A DNA stretch of 34,295 nt, from NCBI GenBank assembly GCA_021790275.1, contig JAJYIB010000003.1:1-34295 (forward strand), written 5' to 3'. The notes under the pieces were generated by a model. The model was not told where the DNA came from and made no database searches. It worked only from the letters and a program-made list of their open reading frames with translations. Source of the DNA: a bacterium (GTDB lineage Bacteria > Patescibacteriota > Minisyncoccia > UBA10092). The stretch's first letter is position 1; each line of letters opens with the position of its first letter. Shown piece by piece: positions 1,300 to 32,823 of this stretch. The position numbers and the translations under genes were made by a program.

Positions 1300-1356
1300 T
1301 TGACAAGTTTTTGTTTTCGGAGTAAAATTGGGGAAAATAGTTCTTTTAGAGGGAGG
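1300..1356 (+). promoter_or_regulatory. Sigma-70 promoter, boxA-like motif and SD
   Basis: TTGACA(1300-1305)-17-TAAAAT(1323-1328); AGTTCTTTTAGA 1339-1350; GGAGG 1352-1356. Confidence 0.7.
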
Positions 1357-1358
1357 AT

Positions 1359-1724
1359 ATGGTGAGAAAAAAAATTTTGTTGGCGGAGGATTACGAAGCC
1401 CTGCGCCTGTATTTTGAACATTATTTGACAGAGGCAGGGTTCGAGGTGATTGCCGTAAAAAACGGCCGAGACGCATTACCGCATCTCGGTGGAGTCGATC
1501 TAGTTTTGACCGACTTTAGGATGCCGTTTTTAAACGGCATAGAGTTGGCGGCGAAGGCAAAGCGGCAAAAGCCGCACTTACCGGTGATAGTGATCACCTC
1601 GTCACCGTGGGATGTGCCGAGCGATCATCCGGCCGATCAAGTCGTCGAGAAGACAGTCGGAAAAATGGAGAATCTTCTCGAAGAAATAGTTTATGTTCTC
1701 AAAAGAAAGGAGAAAAAAAAGTGA
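1359..1724 (+). CDS. Single-domain response regulator (CheY-like receiver)
   Basis: ILLAED acidic pocket, DLVLTDFRMP phospho-Asp, NGIEL, VIVITS and conserved K. SD upstream; start is ATG 1359 or GTG 1362. Confidence 0.9.
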   Translation: MVRKKILLAEDYEALRLYFEHYLTEAGFEVIAVKNGRDALPHLGGVDLVLTDFRMPFLNGIELAAKAKRQKPHLPVIVITSSPWDVPSDHPADQVVEKTVGKMENLLEEIVYVLKRKEKKK

Positions 1725-1930
1725 AAAAAATATTTTTTTCTTTGCTGACGGCAGCGTTTTTGGCTGCCGTGATATTTTTCGTGTATCGGGCAACTCGGGA
1801 ATACGCCGAGTTGCCTACGGTGAAATTTTCCGTCAGCCGCAATATCATTGTGGCTGTGGAAAATTTCAAGGGAGAGCCGATGCCGCTCTCCCCTCTGCCG
1901 GAAAAATACGAGAAGGTTTACGTTCAATGA
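1721..1930 (+). CDS. Small membrane-anchored hypothetical protein (69 aa)
   Basis: GTG start overlaps the upstream TGA (GTGA); AAGGAG SD at 1707-1712; N-terminal hydrophobic helix KKIFFSLLTAAFLAAVIFFVY; terminator follows. Confidence 0.7.
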   Translation: MKKIFFSLLTAAFLAAVIFFVYRATREYAELPTVKFSVSRNIIVAVENFKGEPMPLSPLPEKYEKVYVQ

Positions 1931-1948
1931 ACCTTCTCATAAATATCG

Positions 1949-1985
1949 GGCGTCCCGCGTTGCGGGACGCCTATTTTATTTTTTC
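1949..1985 (+). terminator. Intrinsic terminator
   Basis: GGCGTCCCGC-GTT-GCGGGACGCC 10-bp stem followed by a T-rich tract. Confidence 0.8.
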
Positions 1986-2047
1986 ATTATTTTCTCAATA
2001 AAAAAGTTTGTAAAAAGCGGCAAAAAAGTATTAAGATTTAAAAAAAT

Positions 2048-2137
2048 GGAAGCGTGCCAGAGAGGCCGAATGGGCCGCACTCGAAATGCGGTATGCCGGA
2101 AACGGCATCGGAGGTTCGAATCCTCCCGCTTCCGCCA
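2048..2137 (+). tRNA. tRNA-Ser(CGA)
   Basis: Cloverleaf with anticodon stem CCGCA/TGCGG, loop CTCGAAA, long variable arm, GGTTCGAATCC T-arm and encoded CCA. Confidence 0.95.
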
Positions 2138-2200
2138 GTGATTTTAATCAATATTAGCAATAGTTTTTCAGGTCGAGGATAACGGGATTCGAACCAAAGT

Positions 2201-2599
2201 ATGAAAGTAGTAATAGCCGGAAGCGCAAAGCTTCAAAATGAAATAAAAAAGTGGATAGAATATTGGAATAGTAAAAGTGGCTATGCAATCTTAGATTACC
2301 CTAAAGTTATACCCCAAGATAATTTTGAGAAGCTTTATCCGGATGTCCACAGAAACTTTTTCAAAAACATAACCGAAGCAGATATTCTTTTTATCGCCAA
2401 TGATAAAAAGAAAGGCATTGATGGGTACATAGGAGCTGAAACATTTGCCGAATTGGGATTTGGCTTAGCTCAAAAATTAGTCTATGGAAAAAACATAAAA
2501 CTAATACTTGCCAATATGCCACACAAAGAGGTTGCCTGTTATGATGAGATAGTTTTATGGGAGAAACTTGGTTGGATTGATCAGATCTTAAGCCAATAA
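2201..2599 (+). CDS. Hypothetical protein, nucleoside 2-deoxyribosyltransferase-like fold
   Basis: N-terminal KVVIAGS strand, I..ADILFIAN and GYIGAETFAELGFG..GKNI resemble the NDT catalytic-Glu motif. AT-rich relative to flanking genes. Confidence 0.6.
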   Translation: MKVVIAGSAKLQNEIKKWIEYWNSKSGYAILDYPKVIPQDNFEKLYPDVHRNFFKNITEADILFIANDKKKGIDGYIGAETFAELGFGLAQKLVYGKNIKLILANMPHKEVACYDEIVLWEKLGWIDQILSQ

Positions 2600-2799
2600 A
2601 ATGCTATATTGCATATAACCGATTACAACGAATTATAACGGTAAATTTAGAAAACTTTTTTAGCAAATTCGGGGATCTCAAAATACGCAGGATTTTCTTT
2701 GTAGATTTGTCGCAAAATTCTTATAATTTTATCAACGCGATGAAACAAAAACACCCGTACCAGTTCAAACTTCGGGACATCGCCACCGCCATTGATTTT

Positions 2800-4080
2800 T
2801 CACCGGACAATTACCACTTTTGAAATGCTGAAAACGCTGTTCAGCGAATAGCGGGAAGAAAAATTTATGTCATTGCCGTTCGCGATATACGGATCGCGCA
2901 TCAGATAGCGGCTGTTCGCGCCGCTTGTCAGAACGACGAAATGCTTGCCGCCGTAAACATTCATTCCGATAACGACCGGATTGCCGGCCGCGAGGTTGGC
3001 GTCGATAACGGACGCTTTGCGGGCGGCGGTTACGCCGCCCGCGCTGATAGTATACAAAAGATAGGCCGGATAATACGCGGCGAAATTGTCGGGATTGGAG
3101 TTGATGGTCGCCGGCGTTATATCGCGATAGCCGTAATGCGTCATCATCATCGCCATCGAGGCCACAAGACAGCCGTCGCTCGCCAGATTGTAGCGGGTGC
3201 CGTTCAAAGCGTCACTCCCCCATTTCGAATCGCGCTGGTTGTAATAACAGCCCCACGAGTCGCAAACCGTCTGGTTGGAAAGCAAATTCGATCCGCCGGC
3301 ATTTTTGGTAAACTCGGAAAAACTTTTAAGCTGTGCTTCGGCTTCGGCAAGTAATTTTTGATAAACCGATTCTCTGGCGCCGGTTTCGGTAAGCAGGCGG
3401 TTTTTCGATTTAATCGCCGCCGCAAGCGATGTTTGCTGTGCGGCAAGCGATGCCCGCTGCTGAGCAAGTGCCGCCTGTTTTTGGCGCGAAGCGTCCCGCG
3501 AATCGGACAGATCGCTTTTTTGTTTTTGAAGCAATTTCACGCCGTCGCCGATCGCCGCTTCCATTTTGACGTTGGCGCGGTAATCGTTCCATATTCCGCC
3601 GAGGCCGCTCGACGAAAGAATCTGCGCCAACAGCGGCGTGTCGTCGGCTTTTTGCAAATCGCGCAGGTAAGCCCCGAGCGTTTTTTGATTTTCGGAAATT
3701 TTTTGCTCTTTGTTTGAAATTTCGCCGCCCAATTCGCGGATTTGCGCTTGAACAATGCCGATCCGGCGATTCGTAACGCCGATTTGCGCCTTAATGGCGT
3801 CGCGGCGGAGATCGAGCGCGACAAGAGCCGTTTTTAGCGTCCGCTTGTCATTGCCGATTTTTTTAAGCTCCGTTTCGTAAACCGCGATTTTTTTGTTCAG
3901 CGCGTCGATTTGCGGATCCGACGCGTCGATTTGATTTTGATTTGAATCCGAAGCCGATGAAAGATCCGGCGCGGCGGCGGCAACCGCCGCCGCGCCGCAT
4001 CGCGAGACCGCCAAAAAACCGGCGGCAAAAACCGCGGCGGCAAAAAAAATAAAAATTTTATTTTTTAGACGATCGGTCAT
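2800..4080 (-). CDS. Secreted coiled-coil protein with C-terminal peptidase C39-like domain
   Basis: Signal/TM segment, ~200 aa PcsB-like heptad coiled coil, then YYNQRD..W..GCLVASMAM (Cys), KHFVVL (His), MRDP (Asp). Confidence 0.8.
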   Translation of the reverse strand: MTDRLKNKIFIFFAAAVFAAGFLAVSRCGAAAVAAAAPDLSSASDSNQNQIDASDPQIDALNKKIAVYETELKKIGNDKRTLKTALVALDLRRDAIKAQIGVTNRRIGIVQAQIRELGGEISNKEQKISENQKTLGAYLRDLQKADDTPLLAQILSSSGLGGIWNDYRANVKMEAAIGDGVKLLQKQKSDLSDSRDASRQKQAALAQQRASLAAQQTSLAAAIKSKNRLLTETGARESVYQKLLAEAEAQLKSFSEFTKNAGGSNLLSNQTVCDSWGCYYNQRDSKWGSDALNGTRYNLASDGCLVASMAMMMTHYGYRDITPATINSNPDNFAAYYPAYLLYTISAGGVTAARKASVIDANLAAGNPVVIGMNVYGGKHFVVLTSGANSRYLMRDPYIANGNDINFSSRYSLNSVFSISKVVIVR

Positions 4081-4102
4081 TTTTATAATTATAGTATAAA
4101 AT

Positions 4103-4131
4103 AAAAGGCCCCGCGAAGTGAAAAGCGGGGC
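4103..4131 (-). terminator. Intrinsic terminator of the small lipoprotein gene
   Basis: GCCCCGC...GCGGGGC stem (4108-4131) with an A-run on + (U-tract on -). Confidence 0.6.
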
Positions 4132-4146: not shown

Positions 4147-4386
4147 TTACCGCCGATGATGGCGGTAATAGTACGGCACGTAAGAATATGGATAATAATT
4201 ATAATACGCGCCGTAAGTGGGATAGTATACAACGACGGGCGGAGGCGGTGAAGGTATATAAACCACCGCCGGCTGGCTTACGACTACGACGGGATGAAAT
4301 TCCACCGCCGTCCCATTGGGGAACATCGTCGTACAGCCGGATGATATACAAAACAAAATTGCTATAAACACTAAAAATTTAACCAT
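4147..4386 (-). CDS. Small Pro/Tyr-rich putative lipoprotein (79 aa)
   Basis: Signal peptide ending in lipobox-like SSGC; strong SD AAGGAGGT; own promoter and terminator. Confidence 0.75.
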   Translation of the reverse strand: MVKFLVFIAILFCISSGCTTMFPNGTAVEFHPVVVVSQPAVVYIPSPPPPVVVYYPTYGAYYNYYPYSYVPYYYRHHRR

Positions 4387-4390: not shown

Positions 4391-4461
4391 ACCTCCTTGT
4401 TATTAAATTTTCAAACAACAAACTTTAAACATATTATACTCCGAAACCGCCAAAAAATCAA
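4391..4461 (-). promoter_or_regulatory. Sigma-70 promoter, boxA-like motif and SD
   Basis: On - strand: TTGATT(4461-4456)-17-TATAAT(4438-4433); TGTTGTTTGAAAA (4420-4408); GGAGGT (4396-4391). Confidence 0.7.
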
Positions 4462-9146: not shown

Positions 9147-9218
9147 CCCCTTGTCGTTCAATGGACAGGACGCGAGATTGCGGATCTCGTAATGCAGGTT
9201 CGATTCCTGCCGAGGGGA
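9147..9218 (+). tRNA. tRNA-Arg(GCG), CCA not encoded
   Basis: Acceptor CCCCTTG/CGAGGGG, anticodon stem CGAGA/TCTCG with loop TTGCGGA, T-arm GCAGG-TTCGATT-CCTGC. Confidence 0.93.
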
Positions 9219-9221
9219 CAT

Positions 9222-11366
9222 ATGCCATCATTTCTCGACGAGCCGATTGGAAACATAAGATATTTTGCACCGGCGGCGGTAAAAAAGCTGGCGAGATTGA
9301 AAATAGCGACCGTGCGCGATCTGCTGTATCATTTTCCTTCGCGCTACGATGATTTTTCCGATTTTATTCCGATCGCCGACGCCAAACCCGATTGCGCGGC
9401 CACTATTAGCGGCGAAATTTTAAGCGCGAAAAATATCCGCACTTTCAAAAAGCGGATGATGATCACCGAAATCGTCGTCGGCGACGAATCCGGAGAAATA
9501 AACGCGGTGTGGTTTAACCAGCCGTATCTTTTGAATCAATTTCAAACGGGCCGGCGGATAAATCTGTCGGGAAAAATCGCGCCGAACAAAAAACGGCTTT
9601 GCTTTTCCAATCCGGCTTATGAAATCGCCGACTCCGGCCGCGGCGGAAGTTTGCGGCAAAAAGAACCGCTTCACACCGGCCGGCTGGTGCCGGTCTATCC
9701 CGAAACTTACGGCCTTACATCCCGCTGGCTGAGATCGATTATCAAACCGCTTTTGAAATTCGCCGGCCGCGCGCCCGATGTCTTGCCGGCCGAATTGAGA
9801 AAAGAAAACAATCTTCCGGATTTTGAAAGCGCGATGGCGCAGATTCATTTTCCCGCAAGCGTCGAAAATGCCGCTTCCGCCAAGCGCCGCTTCGCTTTCG
9901 AAGAGCTTTTTATCCTGCAGATGTTTATGGGATTGAATCGCCTGAAATTTCAACGCCAAACCGCGCCGGCGGTTCCTTTCGACGAAAATGCGGCGAAAAA
10001 ATTCGTCAAAACATTGCCGTTCGAACTGACCGGCGACCAAAAAAAAGCCGCCTGGCAAATTATCGGCGATATGTCGCAAAATCGGCCGATGAACCGCCTG
10101 CTCGAAGGCGATGTCGGCAGCGGCAAAACGATTGTCGCCGCGATGGCGGCGTATCTGGCCGCTTTGAAAAATTTTCAGACGGCGTTTATGGCGCCGACGG
10201 AAATTTTGAGCCGACAGCATTTCGAAAAAATCGCGCCGTTATTCGCAAAATCCGGCATCGCCGCCGGGCTTTTGACTTCTTCCGAATCCAGAATTTTCTC
10301 AAATTCCGGCGAAAAAATTTCGAGAAAAAAATTTTTGGAAAAAGTCGCCGACGGAGAAATAAAAATTTTAATCGGCACTCATGCTTTGGTCCAAAAAAGC
10401 GTAAGATTCAAAAATCTGGCGCTGGCGATCGTCGATGAACAGCACCGTTTCGGCGTAAATCACCGCGCCGCTTTGTTAAAAAACGGAAGCGGCGCTCCGC
10501 CTGGCGGAACGCCGCTCGTCCCCCATCTTTTGTCGATGTCGGCCACCCCGATTCCGAGAACCTTGGGCCTGACAATATGGGGAGATCTCGATTTGTCGCT
10601 TATACAGGAAATGCCGAAAGGAAGAAAAAACATAATCACCAAAATAACGGCGCCGGCCGAAAGAAGCGAGGTTTACGAATTCATCAGGAACGAAATCAAA
10701 AACGGCCGGCAGGCGTTTGTGGTCTGTCCGCTTGTCGAAGTGTCGGAAAAATTGTCGGCAAAATCCGCCGAAGGCCGCGAAATAAAAGCGGCAAAAAAAG
10801 AACAGGCGTTTTTACAAGAAAAAATTTTTCCCGAATTGAAAATCGGATTGCTTCACGGCCGATTGAAGCCGAAAGAAAAAGAAAAAACGATGGCGGAATT
10901 TTTGAACCGGAATCTCGATATTTTGGCGACCACTTCGGTTGTCGAAGTCGGCGTCGATATTCCGAACGCTTCCGTAATGATGATAGAAGGCGCCGACCGG
11001 TTCGGCCTCGCCTCGCTTCATCAATTCCGCGGCCGCGTCGGCCGCGGTAAACACCAGTCGTATTGCTTTTTAATGGCCGATTCGCCGTCGGCGCAAACCA
11101 GCAAAAGATTAAAAGCGCTGGAATCGGCGCAAAACGGCTTCAAGCTGGCTGAACGCGACCTGGAAATTCGCGGCCCGGGCGATTTTACCGGTATTCGCCA
11201 ATCGGGACTCCCCGATTTGGCGATCGCCTCGCTTGCGGATTTGCGGCTTGTCGAAGAAACCCGCGAAGCCGCCCGAAAAATTTTATCCCGCGATCCCAAT
11301 CTGAAAAATTATCCGATTTTGAAATCCCGTCTTGCGGAATTCCGAAACAGAGTTCATTTAGAGTAA
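9222..11366 (+). CDS. recG: ATP-dependent DNA helicase RecG
   Basis: Wedge domain, MNRLLEGDVGSGKT, MAPTEILS, DEQHRFG, MSATPIPRT, QFRGRVGRG, DLEIRGPG. Start moved to ATG 9222 because ATG 9192 lies inside the tRNA. Confidence 0.97.
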   Translation: MPSFLDEPIGNIRYFAPAAVKKLARLKIATVRDLLYHFPSRYDDFSDFIPIADAKPDCAATISGEILSAKNIRTFKKRMMITEIVVGDESGEINAVWFNQPYLLNQFQTGRRINLSGKIAPNKKRLCFSNPAYEIADSGRGGSLRQKEPLHTGRLVPVYPETYGLTSRWLRSIIKPLLKFAGRAPDVLPAELRKENNLPDFESAMAQIHFPASVENAASAKRRFAFEELFILQMFMGLNRLKFQRQTAPAVPFDENAAKKFVKTLPFELTGDQKKAAWQIIGDMSQNRPMNRLLEGDVGSGKTIVAAMAAYLAALKNFQTAFMAPTEILSRQHFEKIAPLFAKSGIAAGLLTSSESRIFSNSGEKISRKKFLEKVADGEIKILIGTHALVQKSVRFKNLALAIVDEQHRFGVNHRAALLKNGSGAPPGGTPLVPHLLSMSATPIPRTLGLTIWGDLDLSLIQEMPKGRKNIITKITAPAERSEVYEFIRNEIKNGRQAFVVCPLVEVSEKLSAKSAEGREIKAAKKEQAFLQEKIFPELKIGLLHGRLKPKEKEKTMAEFLNRNLDILATTSVVEVGVDIPNASVMMIEGADRFGLASLHQFRGRVGRGKHQSYCFLMADSPSAQTSKRLKALESAQNGFKLAERDLEIRGPGDFTGIRQSGLPDLAIASLADLRLVEETREAARKILSRDPNLKNYPILKSRLAEFRNRVHLE

Positions 11367-11389: not shown

Positions 11390-11419
11390 TTTACACTTAC
11401 CAATATGTTGTGCTAGTAT
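11390..11419 (+). promoter_or_regulatory. Putative sigma-70 promoter for a small RNA
   Basis: TTTACA(11390-11395)-18-TAGTAT(11414-11419) with extended -10 TG at 11411-11412; no + strand gene follows. Confidence 0.5.
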
Positions 11420-11424
11420 AAAAA

Positions 11425-11481
11425 TGATCGAAAGATCACGAATTCTAGAGCTAGGGGGCCCCTTTACCTGGGGTCCTCTTT
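11425..11481 (+). ncRNA. Putative small RNA convergent with and overlapping the NYN gene 3' end
   Basis: 5' hairpin TGATC-GAAA-GATCA; 3' stem GGGGGCCCC/GGGGTCCTC that pairs fully only on + (two G-U pairs), then TTT. Confidence 0.45.
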
Positions 11482-12222
11482 GCGTTCTAATTCCCTTTTC
11501 CAACATATAAAATCGCGAATTTTTTGAATATCAAAAATCATAAGCCCCTTTTCAACCAGGGTGGATAATTCTTTAGAAACCTTCCGAACGGTTGCAAACA
11601 AAATTACCTTTTTCCCAGCACTCATTAATTTTTCAATCGGATCGGCGAAATCACTATCTCCGCTCCATAGTATAAAAGTTTCTGCGCTATTTCGCTCGCA
11701 ATCAAGAAGCATATCTACGCCTATTTCAACATCAAAATTGCATTTCATATCTTTAATAAAATATTCTCCCTTTTTATTCATATCCTTGAATCTTTCATTT
11801 AAATACTCAATAGTTGTGATTTCATATTTTTTTAAAAGCGCTCGGCGAATAAACTGGCTGATTAATACTGTTGAATCGGGTAAAATACTTGAAACATCAA
11901 TAGAAAGTTCCATAATTTTTACAGGTTTTGTTCTAAGAAAATATTTATTATTCTCTGCTTCCGTTTTTTCTTTCTCTGATCTTTCATCTCCAGCCAAATA
12001 ACCATTATAAAAATTAACTGCCTCAATAGTATCAAAAGAATCCAGAAATTGTTTTAATCTCCTCAGTTCAATATGCCATCCGAGTTTTTCACTCCACGGA
12101 CGCACATTTGCATAATCAATATAAACACGAGTTTTTGCGCTAAGAATGTTATTGAGTTGTTTGATAACCCGCTGCTTATTCTTTGCGATATTTTCAATTT
12201 TCACTGTTTTTGGCGTAAACAT
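11464..12222 (-). CDS. NYN domain protein (LabA/DUF88, PIN-like ribonuclease fold)
   Basis: VYIDYANV, KCNFDVEIGVD and LWSGDSDFADP acidic active-site motifs; AT-rich. Confidence 0.92.
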   Translation of the reverse strand: MFTPKTVKIENIAKNKQRVIKQLNNILSAKTRVYIDYANVRPWSEKLGWHIELRRLKQFLDSFDTIEAVNFYNGYLAGDERSEKEKTEAENNKYFLRTKPVKIMELSIDVSSILPDSTVLISQFIRRALLKKYEITTIEYLNERFKDMNKKGEYFIKDMKCNFDVEIGVDMLLDCERNSAETFILWSGDSDFADPIEKLMSAGKKVILFATVRKVSKELSTLVEKGLMIFDIQKIRDFICWKRELERKEDPR

Positions 12223-12226
12223 ATAA

Positions 12227-12439
12227 TCAACTTATTTTCTGATATCGATAATTATATCGAATATTGTCATTAAGAAATTGTCCATGTGATGATGCGTGTA
12301 AAAATTGCCGATACAAATGTTCTGGCACATTGAAATATTGATATACATCACCAGAAATAAACTCCACTTCCAAAGTATTCAACTGTTGGTCGTATCCAAT
12401 TGAGCGGATATTTGATGACGATACTGATATTCTACGCAT
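12227..12439 (-). CDS. KTSC domain protein
   Basis: VSSSNIRSIGYD...LEVEF..G.VYQYFNVP...Y..F..ASSHGQFLN..IR matches the KTSC consensus. Confidence 0.93.
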   Translation of the reverse strand: MRRISVSSSNIRSIGYDQQLNTLEVEFISGDVYQYFNVPEHLYRQFLHASSHGQFLNDNIRYNYRYQKIS

Positions 12440-12474
12440 AATTATTTTTTGCGTTTTTGGTATTTAAAAAAATA

Positions 12475-13077
12475 TTATTTAATTGACCTGATATATTTAT
12501 CCTTATAATTTTTAATATCTTTATATTCAACCCAAAAATCCGTAGACCCGGTTTGTCTTATTGTACCATTTGCTCCTTTGTAATATTTTTTACCAAATAC
12601 CATTTTTGCTTTCCTATCTGAAAGAATATAACAATTTATTTTACGATTTTTTCACCAAGTCGCAACATCAACAAAAACATAATATAAATTTACGTCAAAA
12701 TCATTTTTTAATGACACTGATTGTTTTAAATTTTTCCCGTTAATTTTTATATCGCAAAAAGTTCTCGCATTTTGCCGCACCCAAACTGGCTTATTATCCT
12801 GAGCTACTGTTGTAGCCTTGGCATGAAAAAACAACACCTTCCCATTAAACTTTAATCCAATATCCCAATTTTTATTAGAATTTCCAGCATATATAATATC
12901 ATTCTCCAATAAAGATGACAGGTCATTCCCATAAGTTGCTAGAAGTTGTTTTAAAACCAACAACTCGCCTATAAATCCCCTATCAAAAGGTTTGTTGCAT
13001 AAATTTCTAAATCTCCAGCAATCATTTAACATTTTATCCGTTAACATTTTCCACTTTTTATATGTTTTTTTGTCCAT
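12475..13077 (-). pseudogene. PD-(D/E)xK restriction-endonuclease-like gene interrupted by one in-frame TGA
   Basis: GFIGELLV..WDI..FFHAKAT motif. After TGA at 12654-12652 the same frame stays open 58 more codons to TAA 12477-12475 (200 aa in total). Confidence 0.6.
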
Positions 13078-13089
13078 AATTTTTATATT

Positions 13090-19619: not shown

Positions 19620-19625
19620 TCGCAA

Positions 19626-21059
19626 TCACCTCCCTCGTTCGAAATTTTCTTTTATAATTTTATTGAATTTGCGGCCGCGGTCAAATTCATTCTTGAATTT
19701 TCCGAAACTGGCCGCCCCGGGCGAAAAAATTATTTTTTCAAAACATTTTCTGTTTTTAATCGCGCCGATTATTTCGCCAACCGATTCGGACAGCCGCGGC
19801 TTCGATTTGAAATATCTCAATTTTTCCAATTCGGCAACCAGTTTTTCGGTGGCGCTGCCGCCGAGAAGAAACAGATTTTTTCGGGGAACTTCTTTTTTGA
19901 TTTTTCTCGCCAAATTTTTGAAATCAAGCATCTTGTCGGCGCCGCCGCAGATCAAAGCGGTTTTTTTGATATCCGGCTTGAATCCGTCGATTGCCGCGGC
20001 GACTCCCTCCGGACTGGTGGAGGCCGAATCGTTTACAATTTCCAGATTGCCGCTTTTAAAAACGATTTCCTGCCGGAAAGGCACGGCCGGAAGCGACGGA
20101 ATTTTCGCCGCCATTTCCTTCCATTTTTTCCCGTATAAATAGCCGACCAAAAGCGCCGCCAGAAGATTTTGTTTCCGGTGCGGGCTGAAATTTTCGATTT
20201 CGGCCACGAATTTTTTTTGTCCGTTATTTTGAAAAATTATTTTTTGCCCGCCGCAATACAAGCCGTTTTTATTTTTCGGCAATGACTTGAGGGCAATATA
20301 AAATATCGCGCTCTTCGGCTTTCGCTTGAAGAACGGCGCGTTGTTGATATCGTAATTTAAAATGAGAAAATCCTTATCCGTCTGATTGGAAAAGACGCGA
20401 GATTTCGCCAGCGCGTAATTTTTCATATTGCCGTGCCGATTGAGATGATCGACATATAAATTGGTAATCACCGCGATTTTCGGAGCTTTCAGATTTTGAT
20501 TCAATTCCCAATATTCGAGCTGATACGACGGAATTTCCAAAATCAGCGGTTTCCGCGCGCCGCTTTGCGGCGCGCGGAGAATTCTATCCAGTATTTTCAA
20601 AGGAGCCAGTGCCGGAATATTGCCGCCTATGCGCGCGGGTTTTAAAAAATGATGCGTCCAGACGGCGGTGGTGGTTTTCCCTCTGGTGCCGGTGATCGCG
20701 ATATATTCCGTTTCCGGCATAACCTGATTCAAAATTTTCAGCATCAGCGACAAATCGGTTTCAATCGCTTTGCCGTTTTCGCCGGCGAATCGCGCCCATT
20801 TGCTGTTGGCGCTTACGGCCTGATTAAAAACTATAACATCGCTGTTTAAAAAATCCGCTTCACGGTGTTTCCCCAAAACATATTTTATTTTCAATCCTTT
20901 TAATTTTGCCAGACCGGATGTTAATTCTTGAGCGGAATTCAAATCGGTAACCGAAAGTTTCGCCCCGCGTTTTGCCAAAAATGCGGCGGTGGCCGCGCCG
21001 CCGCCCAGCCGGCCAAGCCCGACCAGCAGGATTTTTTTATTTTTGATTAGATTGCGCAT
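19626..21059 (-). CDS. murD: UDP-N-acetylmuramoyl-L-alanine--D-glutamate ligase
   Basis: GLGRLGGG, AITGTRGKTTT, GGNI, LEIPSYQL, ITNLYVDHLNRH, NDSASTSP, ICGGADK, FSPGAASFG.FKNEFDRG. Confidence 0.93.
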   Translation of the reverse strand: MRNLIKNKKILLVGLGRLGGGAATAAFLAKRGAKLSVTDLNSAQELTSGLAKLKGLKIKYVLGKHREADFLNSDVIVFNQAVSANSKWARFAGENGKAIETDLSLMLKILNQVMPETEYIAITGTRGKTTTAVWTHHFLKPARIGGNIPALAPLKILDRILRAPQSGARKPLILEIPSYQLEYWELNQNLKAPKIAVITNLYVDHLNRHGNMKNYALAKSRVFSNQTDKDFLILNYDINNAPFFKRKPKSAIFYIALKSLPKNKNGLYCGGQKIIFQNNGQKKFVAEIENFSPHRKQNLLAALLVGYLYGKKWKEMAAKIPSLPAVPFRQEIVFKSGNLEIVNDSASTSPEGVAAAIDGFKPDIKKTALICGGADKMLDFKNLARKIKKEVPRKNLFLLGGSATEKLVAELEKLRYFKSKPRLSESVGEIIGAIKNRKCFEKIIFSPGAASFGKFKNEFDRGRKFNKIIKENFERGR

Positions 21060-21319: not shown

Positions 21320-21970
21320 TTATATTTTGCCGGCGCTTTCAAGTTTTGCCTGAATCACGGTGCGCATCGAAGACGAACCGACCGGCCAGCAGGTTATCAA
21401 GGCGATATCCGACTCGCCTTGCGGAATCTGCGCCAGCAATTCGTTGGTTTTGGCCGGCGTTAAAACGTCGTCGGCAAAAACTTTGTAAGCCAATTTTTTA
21501 TTTCCGTAAAAAACATAAACTTCGTCGCCTTTTTCGAGCTTATGCAAAAGCGCGAAAATCGAACCGTAGTCGCCGCGATACCAAATCGCTTTCGAGCTGT
21601 GCCCGAGAATAACCGAACGGCCGTTTTCGCCGAACTGCTGGGAGCCGGGATAAAACGCGACGCCGCTTTCCATCGCCGCCAATATCGTTTTATTGTCCCC
21701 GTCTTTCGGAAAAACGATCGGAGACATCGTGGCGGTTTTGGGAATCGCAAGATAATAGTCGTTTTCGCTTCCGGACGGTTTTTCAACCGCGCCGCTTAAA
21801 CCGAGAATCGGCCAATTTTTCAAATCGGACCCGAAAGGGGAATTGACGACCAAATCATAGCGCAAAATCCGAAAATACGCTCCACCGTTCAAAACCAGAT
21901 AAACCGCGAACGCGGCGGCAAAAAATATCGCGGCGAATATCGCCAATTCTTTTTTAGGATTGATTTTCAT
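21320..21970 (-). CDS. Sortase (class E-like)
   Basis: N-terminal TM, ILGHSS (His), LITCWP (Cys), MR (Arg). Start moved to ATG 21970. Confidence 0.9.
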   Translation of the reverse strand: MKINPKKELAIFAAIFFAAAFAVYLVLNGGAYFRILRYDLVVNSPFGSDLKNWPILGLSGAVEKPSGSENDYYLAIPKTATMSPIVFPKDGDNKTILAAMESGVAFYPGSQQFGENGRSVILGHSSKAIWYRGDYGSIFALLHKLEKGDEVYVFYGNKKLAYKVFADDVLTPAKTNELLAQIPQGESDIALITCWPVGSSSMRTVIQAKLESAGKI

Positions 21971-22970
21971 TCGTTTCCGTATCGGCTTTCGCTTCCGATT
22001 TTTTGATCTTTCCGATTTTTCTTTCAAGAATCGCGCCGTTATAAGCGTCGGCCAGAGCAATTCCGTGTCCGAACCGCGCTTTGAATAACAACAAATAAAT
22101 CGCGGCGGCCAGAATCAGCCCGCCCGGAAAAACCCAAAGCCATAGATCTTCCGGCCCCGTCGCGGCGTTGGCCACCGGAGTTGAAATACTTTTTGCCGGC
22201 GCTTCGGTTGCCGCCTGCGCAACGGGCACGGATGCGGTTTCGTAATTCGGCGCGTAGTAGCTTGCGGCATAAGCCGTTTGATAAGGCACTGTGAAATTAG
22301 GATAATTGGCCGGATTGGGCGCGGCGGTGGCGGCATAAGCGACCGGCGTTTGAGGAACCGTGAAATTATATTTTCCGATATCGGGCGCCTGGTATGCGTA
22401 GCCGTAAGAAGCGGGAGTGAAAGAAAAATTATAATGACCGATATCGGTCGAAGCCGCCGGATTTGTCGCCGGAATAACGGGCGACGGGAAATTGTAATGG
22501 GCGGGATTCGCGTCGGAATACGAATCAGACGGCGCGCCGTAATAAGGAACGTATCCATATCCCGAAACATTGTTCGTGATGGGATAGTTGTAAGTTCCTA
22601 TATAGACCGTCGAAGGATAGCTGTAAGTTCCGATGTCCGCCGAAGCCGGATAGTTATAAGTTCCTATATCGGCCGAGGATGGATTATTGTAAGTTCCGAT
22701 ATCGGCCGTCGTAGGATAATCGTAAGTGCCGACATCCGCCGAGGACGGATAGCTGTAAGTTCCGATGTCCGCCGCAGACGGATAGCTATAAGTGCCGATA
22801 TCGGTCGTAGAAGGATAAGTTCCTGTATCGGCCGAGGACGGATTATCATAAGTCCCGATATCCGCGGTATCCGCGCGAACCATCGGAGTCCAAATATTAA
22901 AAGAAAACAAAAATACCGCCGCCAAAAGCGTCAATGATATTTTCTTCGATGCAAATTTTATATTTTTCAT
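21954..22970 (-). CDS. Secreted Tyr/Pro/Ser/Thr-rich tandem-repeat surface protein, probable sortase substrate
   Basis: Signal peptide; 9 copies of ADIGTYxYPSS; C-terminal NAATGP followed by a TM helix and basic residues; overlaps the sortase start. Confidence 0.8.
   Translation of the reverse strand: MKNIKFASKKISLTLLAAVFLFSFNIWTPMVRADTADIGTYDNPSSADTGTYPSTTDIGTYSYPSAADIGTYSYPSSADVGTYDYPTTADIGTYNNPSSADIGTYNYPASADIGTYSYPSTVYIGTYNYPITNNVSGYGYVPYYGAPSDSYSDANPAHYNFPSPVIPATNPAASTDIGHYNFSFTPASYGYAYQAPDIGKYNFTVPQTPVAYAATAAPNPANYPNFTVPYQTAYAASYYAPNYETASVPVAQAATEAPAKSISTPVANAATGPEDLWLWVFPGGLILAAAIYLLLFKARFGHGIALADAYNGAILERKIGKIKKSEAKADTETNENQS
22575..22865 (-). repeat. Coding tandem repeat, 33-bp (11-aa) unit x9 (one 27-bp unit)
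   Basis: ADIGTYDNPSS, ADTGTYPST, TDIGTYSYPSA, ADIGTYSYPSS, ADVGTYDYPTT, ADIGTYNNPSS, ADIGTYNYPAS, ADIGTYSYPST, VYIGTYNYPIT. Confidence 0.92.
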
Positions 22971-23008
22971 ATTTATTCTCCCCTTCTTTTTTTCCGTTAT
23001 TATAACCG

Positions 23009-23063
23009 AAAAAAAGAAAGAGGCGGAAGATTTCGTCCCGCACTGCGGGACGAAATCTTCCGC
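23009..23063 (-). terminator. Long perfect hairpin / intrinsic terminator
   Basis: 20-bp perfect inverted repeat GCGGAAGATTTCGTCCCGCA-C-TGCGGGACGAAATCTTCCGC (23023-23063) with a U-rich tract on -. Confidence 0.8.
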
Positions 23064-23067
23064 TAAT

Positions 23068-24030
23068 CTACGGCGCCGGATGCTGATATGGGATCATATC
23101 AGCATTACCGACGCTATCCTGCTGCTTGGAGTACGCGACGAAATAAATTCGCGCCTCCTGTATTCCGTCGTTGATCTCGGCTTGCAATACGCCGGGATCG
23201 ACGACGAGCGGCAAACCATCGGGAGGTGAAACCATAATCACCTCCCGCGATTTGACGACAAGCGCCGTTGCCGAATCTATAAAATTCGGATCGAACGCTA
23301 TCGTCGCCTCGCCGCCCTTGCTCACAACCTCAAAGTGAGCGTCGGCGGCGAACGCGCCGGACAAAACGATTTTTTTCCCGTTGACATAAATCGTTTTGCC
23401 GGCAAACCTGTCGGCGCCGCGGCTGACTTCGACATCGAAGCGGACAGTGTCCGGCGCCGGCTTGATCGAACCGTCGGTCAGGCCTTTGCGGATCACCGAC
23501 CCGATGTCGCGGGACCGGCCGGTCAACTTATTCGCTCCGACAACAACGTCGAGGCGAATTTTGAACAGTCCGGCCGGCGGCATCGTTGCCGCGATTCTTT
23601 TTTCCGCCGCAATCTTTGCGATTGCGGCCTTTTTCGCATCGCGCGCCGGCCGGTGGTACGGCTTTTTTGCCGCTTTCGCGCGCCGACGCGAAGCTTTGCG
23701 GATCGTCGCCGATTTTGAGACGGCGATTTTCGCCTCACCGACGTAAATCTCCATCGGCGTGCCGGAAGGCGCGCCGATATTCACGCTGATGCCGTTTTGT
23801 GACGGCGCCGGCGTAACTGCCGGCGACACGGCGGCCGCAGGCGGAATCGGCTTGCGCGCCGCCTGTTCCGCCTTATCTTTTTTCACAACAAAAGATAAAG
23901 CGAAAAACAAAGCGACGGCAATCACAACAATCAATAGCGTTACGCCAACACTCACCACAACGCTACCGATCCAATCATCACTCCCGATGTAGCGAACATC
24001 GCCGCGTCTTCTCCAGGGCCTTTTATCCAT
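23068..24030 (-). CDS. Hypothetical single-pass membrane protein with Pro/Ala and Lys/Arg/Ala-rich linkers
   Basis: 320-aa ORF with one TM, strong SD GGAGGTG, own promoter and terminator. Confidence 0.75.
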   Translation of the reverse strand: MDKRPWRRRGDVRYIGSDDWIGSVVVSVGVTLLIVVIAVALFFALSFVVKKDKAEQAARKPIPPAAAVSPAVTPAPSQNGISVNIGAPSGTPMEIYVGEAKIAVSKSATIRKASRRRAKAAKKPYHRPARDAKKAAIAKIAAEKRIAATMPPAGLFKIRLDVVVGANKLTGRSRDIGSVIRKGLTDGSIKPAPDTVRFDVEVSRGADRFAGKTIYVNGKKIVLSGAFAADAHFEVVSKGGEATIAFDPNFIDSATALVVKSREVIMVSPPDGLPLVVDPGVLQAEINDGIQEARIYFVAYSKQQDSVGNADMIPYQHPAP

Positions 24031-24037
24031 AATAGCC

Positions 24038-24119
24038 CACCTCCAAATAAATTTATAAAGAGCAAAATGCTCTTATGGACTTGCCCCAATATTATACACT
24101 ATATATTTATTTCCGTCAA
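24038..24119 (-). promoter_or_regulatory. Sigma-70 promoter, boxA-like motif and SD
   Basis: TTGACG(24119-24114)-17-TATAAT(24096-24091); TGCTCTTTATAA (24064-24053); GGAGGTG (24044-24038). Confidence 0.75.
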
Positions 24120-24137
24120 ACAAACGCGAAAAGACGC

Positions 24138-24178
24138 AAAAAAACGGGAAAGCCCGCCCCGCAATGCGGGGCGGGCTT
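24138..24178 (-). terminator. Terminator of the pilin operon
   Basis: 14-bp perfect stem AAGCCCGCCCCGCA-A-TGCGGGGCGGGCTT (24150-24178) with a U-run nearby on -. Confidence 0.72.
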
Positions 24179-24203
24179 GAATTTTTTTCGAACACCGAGG
24201 CAA

Positions 24204-24545
24204 TTATCTTCCTTGCAGGAAATTTACGATAAACGGCTCGACGGAATACGTCAAAACCGCGACCACAATGCCGATGATGGCATAAATCAAAACGTTTTTG
24301 GCTTTTTCATGCGCCGCCGAACTTGCTCCCGCGAAAAGAAATAAAATGGCGGAGTAAATAAGCATTATAACAGAAACGATGGCCACGGCCGCCGAAAGAA
24401 ATGTCAAAACATTGCCGAGAATGGTGAGAACTCCGGACGGACTGGTTATAATCGGCCCCTGTAAAATATCAGCCGCCGCCAAAAACGGCAGAAGAGCCGC
24501 CAAGCCGAATATCCCCGCCCCTGTTTTTATAAAATTCTTTTTCAT
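24204..24545 (-). CDS. VirB2/TrbC-like pilin (CPR type)
   Basis: Signal peptide, two hydrophobic helices joined by AGASSAAHEKAKNVL, YAIIGIVV. Confidence 0.85.
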   Translation of the reverse strand: MKKNFIKTGAGIFGLAALLPFLAAADILQGPIITSPSGVLTILGNVLTFLSAAVAIVSVIMLIYSAILFLFAGASSAAHEKAKNVLIYAIIGIVVAVLTYSVEPFIVNFLQGR

Positions 24546-24578
24546 TATAATAATTTTAATTTTAATTATTTACCGATT

Positions 24579-24911
24579 TTAAAAACTGCCGCTTAAAAAT
24601 CCTTTGATAATGCTTGTGATGCCTTTCGCCACCAGTAAAATCACAATTCCGATTATAGCATACCACAAAGTTTTCCGCGCCTGCGTCACTTTATCTTTGT
24701 TGCCGCCGCTTGTCATAAAAATCAGCGCCGACCAGAGAATGATTATCGTCGATATCGTCGCGCCGATTTCCAAAAGCCAGGTGGCTATTTTATCGATCAA
24801 AGTCGGAATATCGCCGGCGCCGATGGGATTAACCAGCTCGACGGCAAGCGCTTTTCCTCCCACCATAAACATTATGGCAAAAACAAGCGAAAAAATCAAG
24901 AATGTTTTCAT
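24579..24911 (-). CDS. VirB2/TrbC-like pilin (CPR type)
   Basis: ALA cleavage site, L.NPIG, FMTSGGN..KV..ARKTLWYAIIG. Start set at ATG 24911. Confidence 0.88.
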   Translation of the reverse strand: MKTFLIFSLVFAIMFMVGGKALAVELVNPIGAGDIPTLIDKIATWLLEIGATISTIIILWSALIFMTSGGNKDKVTQARKTLWYAIIGIVILLVAKGITSIIKGFLSGSF

Positions 24912-24934
24912 AAACAAATTATACCGCAAGCGGT

Positions 24935-29834: not shown

Positions 29835-31214
29835 TTATGCGTATTCTCTCGGCTTCAATTCTTCGTCTATTTCTTTTTCCGGCGACGGCTCGGTTTCATA
29901 ACCGGCCTGTTGTTCTTCGGACCGGTAAACCCCTTCGGCCTTATCTTCGTCTTCCGCTTCGGCGGCCATTTCTTCTTCCGCCGCCTCGGCCCCTTCTTTG
30001 ATTGCCTTTTTTTCTTCGGCCGATTCTTTTTCGATTTCTTCCGATGATTCGGGTTTGCCCTCCGCCGAAACTTTACCTTCGAGATCGGCAAGATTGGCGC
30101 CCGCGCCGACGATATCGATTTTCCATCCGGTGAGTTTGGCGGCCAGCCGCACGTTTTGGCCGGCCTTGCCGATGGCCAGCGACAGCTGATCTTCCGGAAC
30201 AAAAACTTTCGCCGAATGATGACTCGGTTCCGATTCTATTTTAATGGCTTTCGCCGGCGATATCGAATTGGAAATAAAAACTTCCGGATCTTCCGACCAC
30301 TCGATGATGTCGATTTTCTCGCCGCCGATTTCGGAAATAACGGCGGCGACGCGCGTGCCTTTTTGGCCGACGCACGAACCGATCGGATCAACGCCTTCTT
30401 CATTGGAAGCGACGGCGATTTTTGTCCGGCTGCCGGCTTCGCGCGCAATCGATTTTATTTCCACCGTTCCGGCGCCGATTTCGGGCACCTCAAGCTCGAA
30501 AAGACGCGAAATCATTTTCGGATGCGAACGCGACAAAACGATTCCCGGCCCTCTCGGATCGGAATTGACGGCTAAAATATAAAATTTCATCCGCGAACCG
30601 ACGGGATATCGTTCGCCGAAAACCTGTTCCTCTTTCGGCAAAACCGCAACCGTTCGCCCCAGATCGATAAAGATATTGTACGGCTCGATTCTTTGGATGA
30701 TGCCGCTTATCAATTCGCTTTCTTTGTCTTTATATTCGTTCCAGACCGCTTCCCGCTCCGCTTCGCGGATTCTTTGGATAATTACCTGCTTGGCGGTTTG
30801 GGCGGCGATGCGGCCGAAATCTTCGCGGGCTTCCAGCGGAAATTCCATTTCATCGCCGACGGCAATATCTTTTTTTATCTTTTTCGCGTCATCGATCATT
30901 ATGTGCCGCTCGGCATTGAACTTCACTTTTTTTTCACCTTCTTCGCTCTCGATCGCCGCCGGCGATGCAATTTCTTCTTCCTCGTCTTCCGGCTTAAGCA
31001 TCGATTCGTCGACAACGATTTTCACCTGGAAAAATTCCGCTTCGCCGGTTTTCTGATCGAATTTGGCCCGGACAATCTGGCCTTTTTCTCCATATTCTTT
31101 TTTATAAGCCGCGGCCAAAGCGATTTCCACCGTTTCAAGCACTTTCTCTTTGGGAATGCCTTTTTCTTCGGAAATCTGCCCCAAGGCCGAAGCTAGTTGT
31201 TTTAAATCCATCAT
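29835..31214 (-). CDS. nusA: Transcription termination/antitermination factor NusA with acidic C-terminal tail
   Basis: [23 protein letters not shown]1 and KH domains ([37 protein letters not shown]). Start at ATG 31214 or 31211. Confidence 0.97.
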
Positions 31215-31247
31215 AATTTTTATTAAAATAACCGAAATTTTGGTTTT

Positions 31248-31328
31248 AAAAAGCCCGCGCTCGGCGGACTTCAAAAAACGTTCATTCAATCACGCTTGTA
31301 TTATACGCTTCAAAAACTTCCCCGTCAA
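31248..31328 (-). promoter_or_regulatory. nusA promoter and leader attenuator hairpin
   Basis: TTGACG(31328-31323)-17-TATAAT(31305-31300); leader hairpin AAGTCCGC-CGAGC-GCGGGCTT with a short U-run (31271-31248). Confidence 0.65.
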
Positions 31329-31609
31329 CTTTTCGTTTTTTCCTTCACTTCTTCACCGCCTTTAACCAATTCTTCCGATTGCTCCCCGTCTTCTTTCAAA
31401 AGTAAAGCCTGAAATTCGCCGACGTGGGTTTTTTCTTCTTTCGCCACGTCCAAAAGAATTTTTTTAATGGCCGCGCTATCGGCCATCGTCGCCATCTGTT
31501 CGTATAAATTAACCGCGTCGAGTTCGGCGATTATCCCGGCACGCAAAATTTCTTTATCCAGATCTTCTTTTTTTATTTTTTCCAAATTTACCGGAATTTG
31601 CGACAGCAT
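31325..31609 (-). CDS. Short ferritin-like protein (rubrerythrin/encapsulated-ferritin-like)
   Basis: AELDAVNLYEQ and EEKTH di-iron ligand motifs in a two-helix 94-aa protein. Confidence 0.88.
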   Translation of the reverse strand: MLSQIPVNLEKIKKEDLDKEILRAGIIAELDAVNLYEQMATMADSAAIKKILLDVAKEEKTHVGEFQALLLKEDGEQSEELVKGGEEVKEKTKS

Positions 31610-31690
31610 TTTTTAAATACGATAAATTTTAATCGCTTTGATTATATCAAAAAATAAAAAATAATTCAAAACAATAATATGCGAAAACAA

Positions 31691-31718
31691 ATAAAATCCC
31701 GCGCCGGCCGGCGCGGGA
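31691..31718 (-). terminator. Terminator of the sigma factor gene
   Basis: Perfect 22-bp palindrome TCCCGCGCCGGCCGGCGCGGGA (31697-31718) with a U-run on -. Confidence 0.7.
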
Positions 31719-31738
31719 AAAGCAGTTTTATTTTTTCT

Positions 31739-32725
31739 TCATTTTCCTTCCTTCTTGAATTCAATCCGGTATTCATTACAATAAATACGGATTAATGCTT
31801 TAAGTTTTGTCAAGGCCTTAACCTGCATTTGCCGCACCCGTTCGCGGGTAACGCCCATAATATCTCCGATTGCCTGCAGTGTGAGCGGCTTGCAACCGAT
31901 GCCGAATCTTTTTCTGATAACAAATTCCCATTTCGGATCCAACCGCTTTAACAGAGATGAAATTTTCTTCGCCAATTTCGCCTGGTCCATCGACTCTATA
32001 ATCGACGATTCGGATAAGGCCGAACCGTCGGCCAAAAAATCTTTCAACGAATCGTCGTTATCGCCGTCTCCGACCGGCAATTCCAGCGAAATCGGATTGA
32101 AAGACGCATTCAACAAGCGTGAAATATATTTTTCCGACGTGTTGAAATATTGCGCCGCCTCTTCGATCGACATGCGCTTCTTATCTATTTTGCGGAGCAT
32201 CTCGACAGCATGCACCGGAACGCGTATCGGACGACCCTTTTCGATAATGGCGCGGCCGATGGCTTGTCTTATCCAAACCACCGCATACGTGGAGAAGCGG
32301 AAATCGACATCGATATCGAACTTCTCGATGCAGTGGTACAATCCGAATACTCCCTCCTGTATCAAGTCGTTCATTTCCAAACTGCCGCTTCGGGCTTCGT
32401 ACAAACCCGCAAATTTTACGACCAGACGGATATTCCCCTCCACGATTTCATCGCGCAAAGCGGCGATTTGCTTTTGCGCTTTGGCGGATTTTTTCCGTTC
32501 AAGCGAGCGCATCCGTCTTATTTTTTCAATCGTTTCGTCGCTTCTTAAGTAAGAAATGCGTCTCGCATCTTTAAAAAAATAAGCCAATGCCGACTTGGGA
32601 TCACTTACAGCCGTTTCAACTTCTTCCAATACCGGCGCCGGCTCCGAATCCGGCGCATTGTTTAAATCCGATTCGCCTGCCGCGTCGGATAACTCGAAAA
32701 TATCTTTCTTCCTTTTCATTGTCAT
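31739..32725 (-). CDS. RNA polymerase sigma-70 family factor (RpoD/RpoS-like, probably non-primary)
   Basis: Region 2 NIRLVV, DLIQEG, FSTYAVVWIRQAI; region 3 ISLELPVG; region 4 TLQAIG..GVTRERVRQ. Confidence 0.92.
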   Translation of the reverse strand: MTMKRKKDIFELSDAAGESDLNNAPDSEPAPVLEEVETAVSDPKSALAYFFKDARRISYLRSDETIEKIRRMRSLERKKSAKAQKQIAALRDEIVEGNIRLVVKFAGLYEARSGSLEMNDLIQEGVFGLYHCIEKFDIDVDFRFSTYAVVWIRQAIGRAIIEKGRPIRVPVHAVEMLRKIDKKRMSIEEAAQYFNTSEKYISRLLNASFNPISLELPVGDGDNDDSLKDFLADGSALSESSIIESMDQAKLAKKISSLLKRLDPKWEFVIRKRFGIGCKPLTLQAIGDIMGVTRERVRQMQVKALTKLKALIRIYCNEYRIEFKKEGK

Positions 32726-32727
32726 TG

Positions 32728-32823
32728 CCGCCTCCGTATTATTTTGATTTTAAAGTTCGATGTCTGGCGCGATGCGCACTATGCGCGCATCCGGTTTATA
32801 GCAAAAAAACGCCGCACTGTAAA
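32728..32823 (-). promoter_or_regulatory. Promoter, leader hairpin, boxA-like motif and SD of the sigma gene
   Basis: TTTACA(32823-32818)-17-TATAAA(32800-32795) with extended TG; hairpin GATGCGC..GCGCATC (32771-32791); GAACTTTAAAAT (32758-32747); GGAGG (32735-32731). Confidence 0.6.

Follow-up and report, generated by a model that had tools for sequence, protein, structure and literature searches.

A boxA-like leader element among the Shine-Dalgarno-led genes of a Patescibacteriota bacterium

Bacteria assigned to the CPR (candidate phyla radiation) are uncultured, possess few regulators that can be recognised and, in many lineages, are reported to have lost the anti-Shine-Dalgarno motif; one question about them is by what means mRNAs are sorted and controlled. 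A 34,295-nt stretch of DNA from one such genome (NCBI GenBank assembly GCA_021790275.1, contig JAJYIB010000003.1, positions 1 to 34,295; GTDB lineage Patescibacteriota, Minisyncoccia, UBA10092), here called the window, poses the question at four places, where genes for a response-regulator receiver, a lipoprotein-like protein, a 320-aa membrane protein and an extra sigma factor each follow a promoter-like site, a box resembling boxA and a strong Shine-Dalgarno (SD) sequence and end in a terminator-like hairpin. Do these units represent a class of genes in this organism, and what is the box in their leaders? On the comparative sequence evidence set out below we lean towards the view that the box, GTTCTTTGAAAAT, is the boxA of this lineage, an RNA site for NusB and ribosomal protein S10 (NusE), and that it defines a Nus-type regulon tied to the SD-dependent genes.

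The leader box and the genes that carry it

The genome under study (G000; 573 kb in 41 contigs, about 47% G+C, estimated to be 91% complete, with the window as its contig C12) was searched for genes and starts with a purpose-written hexamer-model caller and no standard annotator, giving 565 genes. A rule choosing the start of maximum coding score was dropped because genes came out truncated; instead, every candidate start near the 5′ end of each open reading frame (ORF) was scored in the SD test as a guard against start-choice bias, with internal in-frame starts (n=447) as the control set. SD 4-mers are at background (59/565 genes vs 44/447 controls), the regions 5′ of genes are A/T-rich with no rise in G, and long SDs are in clear excess: matches of at least 6 nt to the SD template at the correct spacing precede 40/565 genes vs 11/447 control starts, and perfect 8-nt matches 19 genes vs 1 control. 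The genome is thus SD-poor with a sharply distinct minority, about 7% of genes, that is led by long SDs. An SD-anchored scan independent of the gene calls returned 41 SD-led ORFs, 11 of which the hexamer-model caller had missed.

These SDs fit the organism's own ribosome. The consensus is AAAGGAG, followed at 34 sites by G (26) or A (8) and never by C or T, and the end of GGAG lies 4–11 nt, mostly 6–9 nt, from the start codon. The 16S 3′ tail (...CAUCUCCUUUCU) pairs with AAAGGAG; its end, ...GGAACAUCUCCUUUCU, differs from the canonical tail by one C-to-U change, and the restriction of the next base to G or A is as expected from pairing with the U at the opposite position in the altered tail. 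The altered tail CAUCUCCUUU is common to all five family genomes with a readable 3′ end, and in other families of the class four genomes have the canonical tail while three (G014, G022, G018) lack the motif. The anti-SD motif CCTCCT has been reported in only 48% of Parcubacteria, with the suggestion that SD helices do not form where it is missing (Tsurumaki et al. 2022, PMC9297842). The altered tail of this family and the motif loss in three genomes of the class resemble that picture; in contrast to the proposal made in that source, the one-base change here leaves CUCCUUU, which the long SDs of about 40 genes match. Just 3′ of the tail, ...CTCCTTTCTAGGGAG..., kept in the family and in G023, could pair back onto the anti-SD.

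The SD-led minority is set apart by more than its SD, as the original prediction of a separate expression class had it. A strong promoter-like site lies within 250 nt upstream of 14/27 SD-led vs 48/216 other genes (p 0.002; genes with at least 50 nt upstream), and a terminator-like site follows 20/24 vs 83/189 in a permissive home-made scan, the one used for the genome-wide comparison. Promoter and terminator occur together at 11/36 SD-led vs 20/436 other genes (odds ratio 9), and the median hexamer coding score is 0.25 vs 0.36 per aa (p 1.4e-6).

The leader box is a further mark of the class. Gibbs sampling of 35 SD leaders with no motif supplied yielded GTTCTTTGAAAAT, with 17/35 sites at 9 bits or more and with G at position 1 and C at position 4 conserved. 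With the window loci left out, a boxA-type 13-mer matching at 10/13 places or better is found in 7/28 SD leaders vs 7/201 SD-less leaders, and dinucleotide shuffles of the SD leaders reach this level in 4.5%; the box is more than a chance feature of AT-rich DNA. An independent matrix, built solely from the rRNA leaders of seven relatives, finds the box at 10 bits or more in 8/35 SD leaders vs 0/186 SD-less leaders (Fisher 2e-7; 6/33 vs 0/186 without the window loci) and at 9 bits or more in 13/35 vs 8/186. The box lies on the sense strand (13/35 leaders, antisense 0/35), 3′ of the -10 hexamer wherever a promoter-like site was read out and 10–35 nt upstream of the SD, and 11/50 intergenic hits of at least 10 bits have an SD within 45 nt downstream, vs 3.5% of intergenic windows.

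The same element occurs in the rRNA leaders, where boxA is expected. In this genome and in 8/10 relatives, the SD-leader matrix has its best hit in the 16S leader just past the promoter, with mononucleotide-shuffle p values of at most 0.03 in 9/11 genomes and of 0.07 and 0.30 in the other two; examples are the perfect consensus in G014, GAACTTTGAAAAT in G023 and GTTGTTTTAAAAC in G003. In the 23S leader the box GCACGTTGAAAAT (12.7 bits) stands 27 nt after the promoter-like site TTGACG…TATAGA. Unseeded Gibbs sampling of the relatives' rRNA leaders alone returned GC-containing motifs of the processing stem and no box, and the independent matrix was therefore seeded with the SD-leader matrix. The 16S and 23S genes lie on separate contigs (C36:4246-6305 and C5:4402-7411), and a separate promoter-like site and box precede each of them; what follows the 16S gene is a short open stretch and then a tRNA-like sequence, not the 23S. 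The 16S match spans 2060 nt vs a 1533-position model and probably holds an insertion.

Orthologous leaders retain the box. Across ten family genomes of four genera (56–67% protein identity) the gene for a class II-type ribonucleotide reductase keeps its promoter-like site and a GGAG-type SD, and in 9/10 of these leaders a box of at least 8 bits is kept while the flanking leader sequence has diverged; the copy in G009, GTTCTTTAAAAAT, fits the published boxA consensus GYTCTTTAANA fully. In G003, the closest relative, the receiver homologue has a TTGACA promoter, the box GATCTTTTAAAAC and then AAGGAG, and the homologue of the 320-aa protein (45% identical along a part of the sequence) has a TTGACA-type promoter, the box TGCTCTTTAAATT and an SD. 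The gene for S10/NusE itself, rpsJ, is preceded in this genome by GTTCTTTAAATAT, which lies in the short tuf-rpsJ spacer, adjoins the start codon and ends 3 nt before the ATG, with no SD. The string G[TC]TCTT is found 3–11 nt before the rpsJ start, again with no SD, in 10/11 family genomes and in 3/18 genomes of other families; nine of the ten family copies read G[TC]TCTTT, the remaining one (G007) GTTCTTA. Over 151 genomes of the class, a box followed by GGAGG within 3–32 nt gives 90 matches in 47 genomes, vs 18 for the reversed control.

With its sequence, strand and conservation, its copies before 16S, 23S and the S10/NusE gene, and NusA, NusB, NusG and S10 all encoded, the element earns in kind the label boxA-like that it had been given. 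The de novo consensus agrees at 10/11 places with the GYTCTTTAANA of Baniulyte et al. 2017 (PMC5725501), and several copies fit it fully. NusB-NusE binds boxA upstream of 16S and 23S, and the boxA of E. coli suhB, which stands 6 nt from the SD, acts with the complete Nus complex to repress translation, an effect that survives box-SD insertions of up to 100 nt (PMC5725501). BoxA has been reported before Nus-factor genes, experimentally for suhB and as a suggestion from sequence for NusE and NusB; autoregulation of NusE and NusB, like that of SuhB, has been proposed, and any one species is considered likely to have few boxA mRNA targets, a scan for GYTCTTTAANA within 50 nt of gene starts having given 0–7 sites per gamma-proteobacterial genome (PMC5725501). 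The present case resembles that suhB-type control in E. coli and Salmonella in the box near the SD at most 50 nt before the start, the rpsJ copy, the rRNA copies and the set of NusA, NusB, NusG and S10. It differs from the gamma-proteobacterial cases described in that source in having at least 13 box-bearing leaders in a 0.57-Mb CPR genome, and in that the boxes are restricted to the SD-led genes, themselves rare in a genome that is SD-poor and leaderless-rich and in which Rho was not found. Compared with rRNA antitermination leaders (boxB-boxA-boxC), the box likewise follows a sigma-70-like promoter and precedes the 16S or 23S gene; unlike in them, the mRNA copies precede short protein-coding units ending in terminators, and unlike in rRNA operons the 16S and 23S genes have separate promoter-like sites on different contigs.

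The units of the window and the SD-less core genes

All four units in the window are present as predicted, and at each a GC-rich hairpin followed by a T-run lies just 3′ of the stop codon, as in intrinsic terminators.

1300-1305 and 1323-1328, forward strand: promoter-like site of the receiver unit, TTGACA, 17 nt, TAAAAT (11/12 matches, scan tool)
1339-1350, forward strand: weak boxA-like box AGTTCTTTTAGA, overlapping the SD
1351-1357, forward strand: SD GGGAGGA, by sequence reading, with ATG at 1359
1359-1724, forward strand: orphan response-regulator receiver, 121 aa (Pfam Response_reg, E 9e-14)
1721-1930, forward strand: second small SD-led ORF, 69 aa, GTG start, SD AAAGGAG, N-terminal hydrophobic segment, no Pfam match
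1948-1985, forward strand: terminator-like hairpin and T-run of the receiver unit (11 pairs, 9 of them G-C; scan tool)

4461-4456 and 4438-4433, reverse strand: promoter-like site of the lipoprotein unit, TTGATT, 17 nt, TATAAT (10/12 matches)
4407-4419, reverse strand: boxA-like box GTTGTTTGAAAAT (13.3 bits, rRNA-leader matrix), 11 nt past the -10 hexamer and beginning 33 nt before the ATG
4391-4398, reverse strand: SD AAGGAGGT, with ATG at 4386
4147-4386, reverse strand: 79-aa ORF with a lipoprotein-like N-terminus (…ISSGC…), no Pfam family above the cut-off, missed by the hexamer-model caller
4095-4131, reverse strand: terminator-like hairpin CCCCGC…GCGGGG and T-run, by sequence reading

24119-24114 and 24096-24091, reverse strand: promoter-like site of the 320-aa unit, TTGACG, 17 nt, TATAAT (11/12 matches)
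24051-24063, reverse strand: boxA-like box GCTCTTTATAAAT (11.3 bits), beginning 33 nt before the ATG
24038-24044, reverse strand: SD GGAGGTG, with ATG at 24030
23068-24030, reverse strand: 320-aa membrane protein, no Pfam family
23008-23063, reverse strand: long terminator-like hairpin (19 pairs) and T-run

32823-32818 and 32800-32795, reverse strand: promoter-like site of the sigma unit, TTTACA, 17 nt, TATAAA (10/12 matches, own scan)
32746-32758, reverse strand: moderate boxA-like box GAACTTTAAAATC (8.3 bits), beginning 33 nt before the ATG
32731-32735, reverse strand: SD GGAGG, with ATG at 32725
31739-32725, reverse strand: additional factor of the sigma-70 family, 328 aa (Pfam regions 2, 3 and 4)
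31685-31720, reverse strand: terminator-like hairpin and T-run (scan tool)

The independent scan tool, which requires T at position 6 of the -10 hexamer, lists three of the four promoters, the sigma unit's TATAAA failing that rule; allowing hairpin loops of up to 8 nt, it likewise lists three of the four terminators, the 10-nt loop of the lipoprotein hairpin exceeding its limit. The receiver's box has no matrix score, as it extends beyond the edge of the scored stretch. Since the receiver-unit hairpin sits 3′ of the second SD-led ORF, this unit is bicistronic. Among the 11 other family genomes searched, a close match to the receiver (39% identity) was found in G003 only, and homologues of the 320-aa protein in two. 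For the sigma factor, 30 relatives offer no orthologue closer than their housekeeping sigma, the best matches there (35–42% identical) being of the roughly 410-aa housekeeping type, which is also encoded in this genome on contig C14. The window holds a fifth SD-led unit that lacks the box (0.9 bits):

19275-19684, reverse strand: TTGACC, 16 nt, TAAAAT, then GGGAGGTGA, a 114-aa ORF and a terminator-like site

Two of the promoter spacers end in the same string, TTTCGGAG, which had been thought a shared feature. With 45 copies genome-wide, mostly in coding DNA, it is discounted as a shared spacer element and its sharing is probably chance; at 4/45 copies a -10-like hexamer follows directly or after 2 nt. 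TCGGAG occurs in 5/32 SD leaders vs 1/201, a difference in which some copies are the SD itself and enrichment is unproven.

Across the genome the class proves wider than stand-alone units with regulatory or surface-type cargo, the form in which it had been proposed. On contig C6 (1-9356) a sugar-modification cluster contains six to seven consecutive SD-led genes and encodes two radical-SAM/SPASM proteins, E1 alpha and beta, an epimerase, a methyltransferase and a zinc dehydrogenase; this glycan-modification cluster also carries GT2 and GT9 glycosyltransferases and has a long SD before nearly every gene. The SD-led set further includes the ribonucleotide reductase, another radical-SAM enzyme and many small proteins with no family, and membrane or secreted proteins are not enriched in it, N-terminal hydrophobic segments being found in 11/41 SD-led ORFs vs 141/510 other genes. 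Two paralogous SD-led, boxless proteins of about 195 aa lie at C23:991-1578 (N-terminus MKYGDITFGQMEAI…) and C38:1576-2160 (MKYANLDLGTIEAI…), and at C34:11176-11970 two divergent, back-to-back small ORFs (89 and 104 aa, no family) each have their own box and SD.

The core genes with which the four units had been contrasted, cfa, marR, rplS, hppA and nusA, are correctly identified in the window. They lack SD and box, as proposed; the further idea that they lack the promoters does not hold, for many SD-less genes are preceded by sigma-70-like sites. Such sites (two hexamers spaced 16–18 nt apart, at least 10/12 matches) are enriched over shuffled sequence and concentrated outside genes, at 1.77 per kb intergenic vs 0.18 per kb coding genome-wide; in the two halves of the window they number 52 vs 21.8 ± 4.8 and 35 vs 19.0 ± 3.8 in shuffles, counts of consensus matches only. 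An example is nusA:

29835-31328, reverse strand: nusA (Pfam NusA_N, KH_5), an SD-less core gene with TTGACG, 17 nt, TATAAT, the -10 hexamer ending 10 nt before the first start codon

Where the gap upstream of an SD-less gene is 40 nt or more, 58/229 genes have a -10-like hexamer ending 5–11 nt before the start, vs 22 and 30 in control windows of equal width. Many core mRNAs are therefore probably leaderless, a layout absent from the four units and from the SD-led genes at large (0/28). In the window, for example, -10-like hexamers end 6–9 nt before the starts of 2800-4080 and 29835-31289, both on the reverse strand.

Some neighbouring features stand apart from this comparison. The 320-aa unit is flanked by two T4SS-pilin-like genes (24204-24545, 24579-24929) and by a 338-aa protein and a sortase (21320-22060), and the whole (21320-24929) may be a surface-structure neighbourhood. 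The stretch 11400-13100 has a G+C content of 0.39 vs about 0.47 elsewhere, holds an NYN-domain gene (11464-12222) and family-less ORFs, has no genes called by the coding model, and may be foreign DNA. A tRNA-Arg gene (9147-9219) overlaps the longest-ORF start of recG (ORF 9192-11366), whose true start is therefore further downstream.

Proposed control by NusB and S10 and the competing explanations

Of the two mechanisms originally put forward for the class, the Nus half is favoured by the comparative evidence above. Translation starts fall into two tiers, with most genes SD-less and many of them leaderless-looking, and about 7% led by a leader with a long SD; roughly 40–50% of the SD leaders carry one sense-strand box, which stands downstream of the -10 hexamer and 10–35 nt before the SD. 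If E. coli suhB is taken as the model, the nascent box would be bound by NusB-S10 and held on RNA polymerase with NusA and NusG, and the bound complex would limit the access of 30S subunits to the nearby SD or, in the case of rpsJ, to the very start codon. How strongly the SD-led genes are expressed would then depend on how much free NusB and S10 is available, and so on ribosome synthesis. The binding of NusB-S10 is taken from the same analogy, and so is the direction of control, which could be repression or anti-termination.

Several points weigh against this reading. The box is AT-rich and common, with 176 hits of at least 10 bits in coding DNA and 39 intergenic hits without an SD; a good box is present in only 13–17/35 SD leaders, so that box and SD are linked without being obligatory partners, and the receiver's box is weak. 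The gene starts rest on a home-made caller, the kin genomes are non-independent samples, and the sites in the relatives' rRNA leaders from which the independent matrix was built were chosen with the SD-leader matrix, a mild circularity. A look for RNA sequencing runs containing this DNA listed none. The Pfam families Rho_N and Rho_RNA_bind were not found in the genome (at 91% estimated completeness, absence of Rho is unproven), and the Rho-linked part of the E. coli mechanism may therefore not apply.

One alternative is that the box is an AU-rich translational enhancer or standby site on which S1 and the 30S subunit load, its likeness to boxA being a matter of composition. The box is T-rich and then A-rich and precedes the SD by 10–35 nt, the genome encodes an S1 protein of three domains, and 5/6 folded leaders are unstructured (z -1.7 to +0.2), all as such a site would have it. 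However, copies of the element are also found in the leaders of both rRNA genes, 16S and 23S, and immediately 5′ of rpsJ, which lacks an SD; its conserved G1 and C4 go beyond composition alone, and the 7/28 leaders with a match of 10/13 compare with 4.5% of dinucleotide shuffles. We regard this explanation as unlikely.

An equally improbable account of the class as a whole is that the units are recent foreign DNA which keeps the promoter, SD and terminator of its donor, the class reflecting origin and not regulation. The low hexamer scores of SD-led genes would follow from it, as would the sigma factor without an orthologue in 30 relatives, the 320-aa protein with homologues in only 2/11 other family genomes and the resemblance of the C6 sugar/radical-SAM cluster to an accessory island. 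Set against these are the reductase box and SD, kept across four family genera, the identity of the box with the lineage's own rRNA-leader element, and the fit of the SD to the family's altered 16S tail, a fit that extends to the wobble position, where 8/34 sites have A. A foreign origin may hold for part of the class and is compatible with the box being boxA.

A role at the DNA level, with one regulator of both the rRNA genes and the SD-led genes using the box as its operator or as a promoter-proximal element, would suit a box that lies near promoters, 7–46 nt past the -10 hexamer, with some copies within palindromes such as TTTGAA…TTCAAA. We think it less likely still, given the strict confinement to the sense strand (13 vs 0), the variable distance to the -10 hexamer with the box always downstream where a promoter-like site was read out, the rpsJ copy in the short tuf-rpsJ spacer beside the start codon, and the fit to the published RNA consensus GYTCTTTAANA (PMC5725501).

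The T-rich half of the box might instead mimic the anti-SD, pairing with AAAGGAG and hiding the SD in a hairpin. The minimum-energy fold of the 320-aa leader does pair the box CUCU with GGAG (-23.6 kcal/mol, z -2.6), and weak box-SD pairing is seen in the receiver leader. Over 13 box-bearing leaders, however, box:SD duplexes are no better than other windows of the same leader (-2.2 vs -1.4 kcal/mol, Wilcoxon p 0.34), and SDs with a box have a computed probability of being unpaired of 0.48, vs 0.53 for those without. Duplex energies and SD accessibility thus leave the hairpin unsupported and weakly refuted, and it would account neither for the conservation of the GAAAAT half nor for the copies at the rRNA genes and rpsJ; we consider it very improbable. 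The host half of the original prediction, mRNAs built for the SD-dependent ribosomes of a host, deserves hardly any credence: SDs are rare among the organism's genes and its 16S tail lacks an exact CCUCC, but AAAGGAG can pair with CUCCUUU in that same tail, cytoplasmic enzymes (ribonucleotide reductase, radical-SAM proteins) belong to the class, the leaders carry the organism's own rRNA-type box, and nothing seen here indicates a route of mRNA export.

Meaning for the biology of the family

The present set departs from known boxA cases in three respects: it is large, with at least 13 leaders in 0.57 Mb, it is restricted to the rare SD-led genes, and it comes from another lineage. No paper was found that links boxA with CPR, Patescibacteria or Parcubacteria, save one unrelated survey, and none that joins leaderless and Shine-Dalgarno usage in Patescibacteria. 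The control of mRNAs by boxA, if the favoured reading of the leader box is right, would no longer be a matter of a few targets in gamma-proteobacteria but would include a sizeable regulon in a genome of 0.57 Mb.

Several consequences are practical. The combination of boxA and a long SD in the leader gives a testable rule for marking a distinct class of genes, and the same signature is a way to find small unannotated ones. Prediction of starts from SDs will fail for most genes here, a warning for annotation, and the anti-SD, although altered by one base, is evidently still in use.

A broader proposal, which we put forward tentatively and think rather less probable than the boxA identity itself, is that NusB-S10 and boxA may act throughout the family as a global switch for the SD-dependent minority of mRNAs, from which leaderless and SD-less housekeeping genes would escape, and that this may be a main regulatory axis in a cell that has hardly any transcription factors and in which Rho is not detectable. 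If true, a boxA-gated SD tier would tie accessory genes, the second sigma factor, ribonucleotide reductase and the glycan enzymes to the state of ribosome synthesis.

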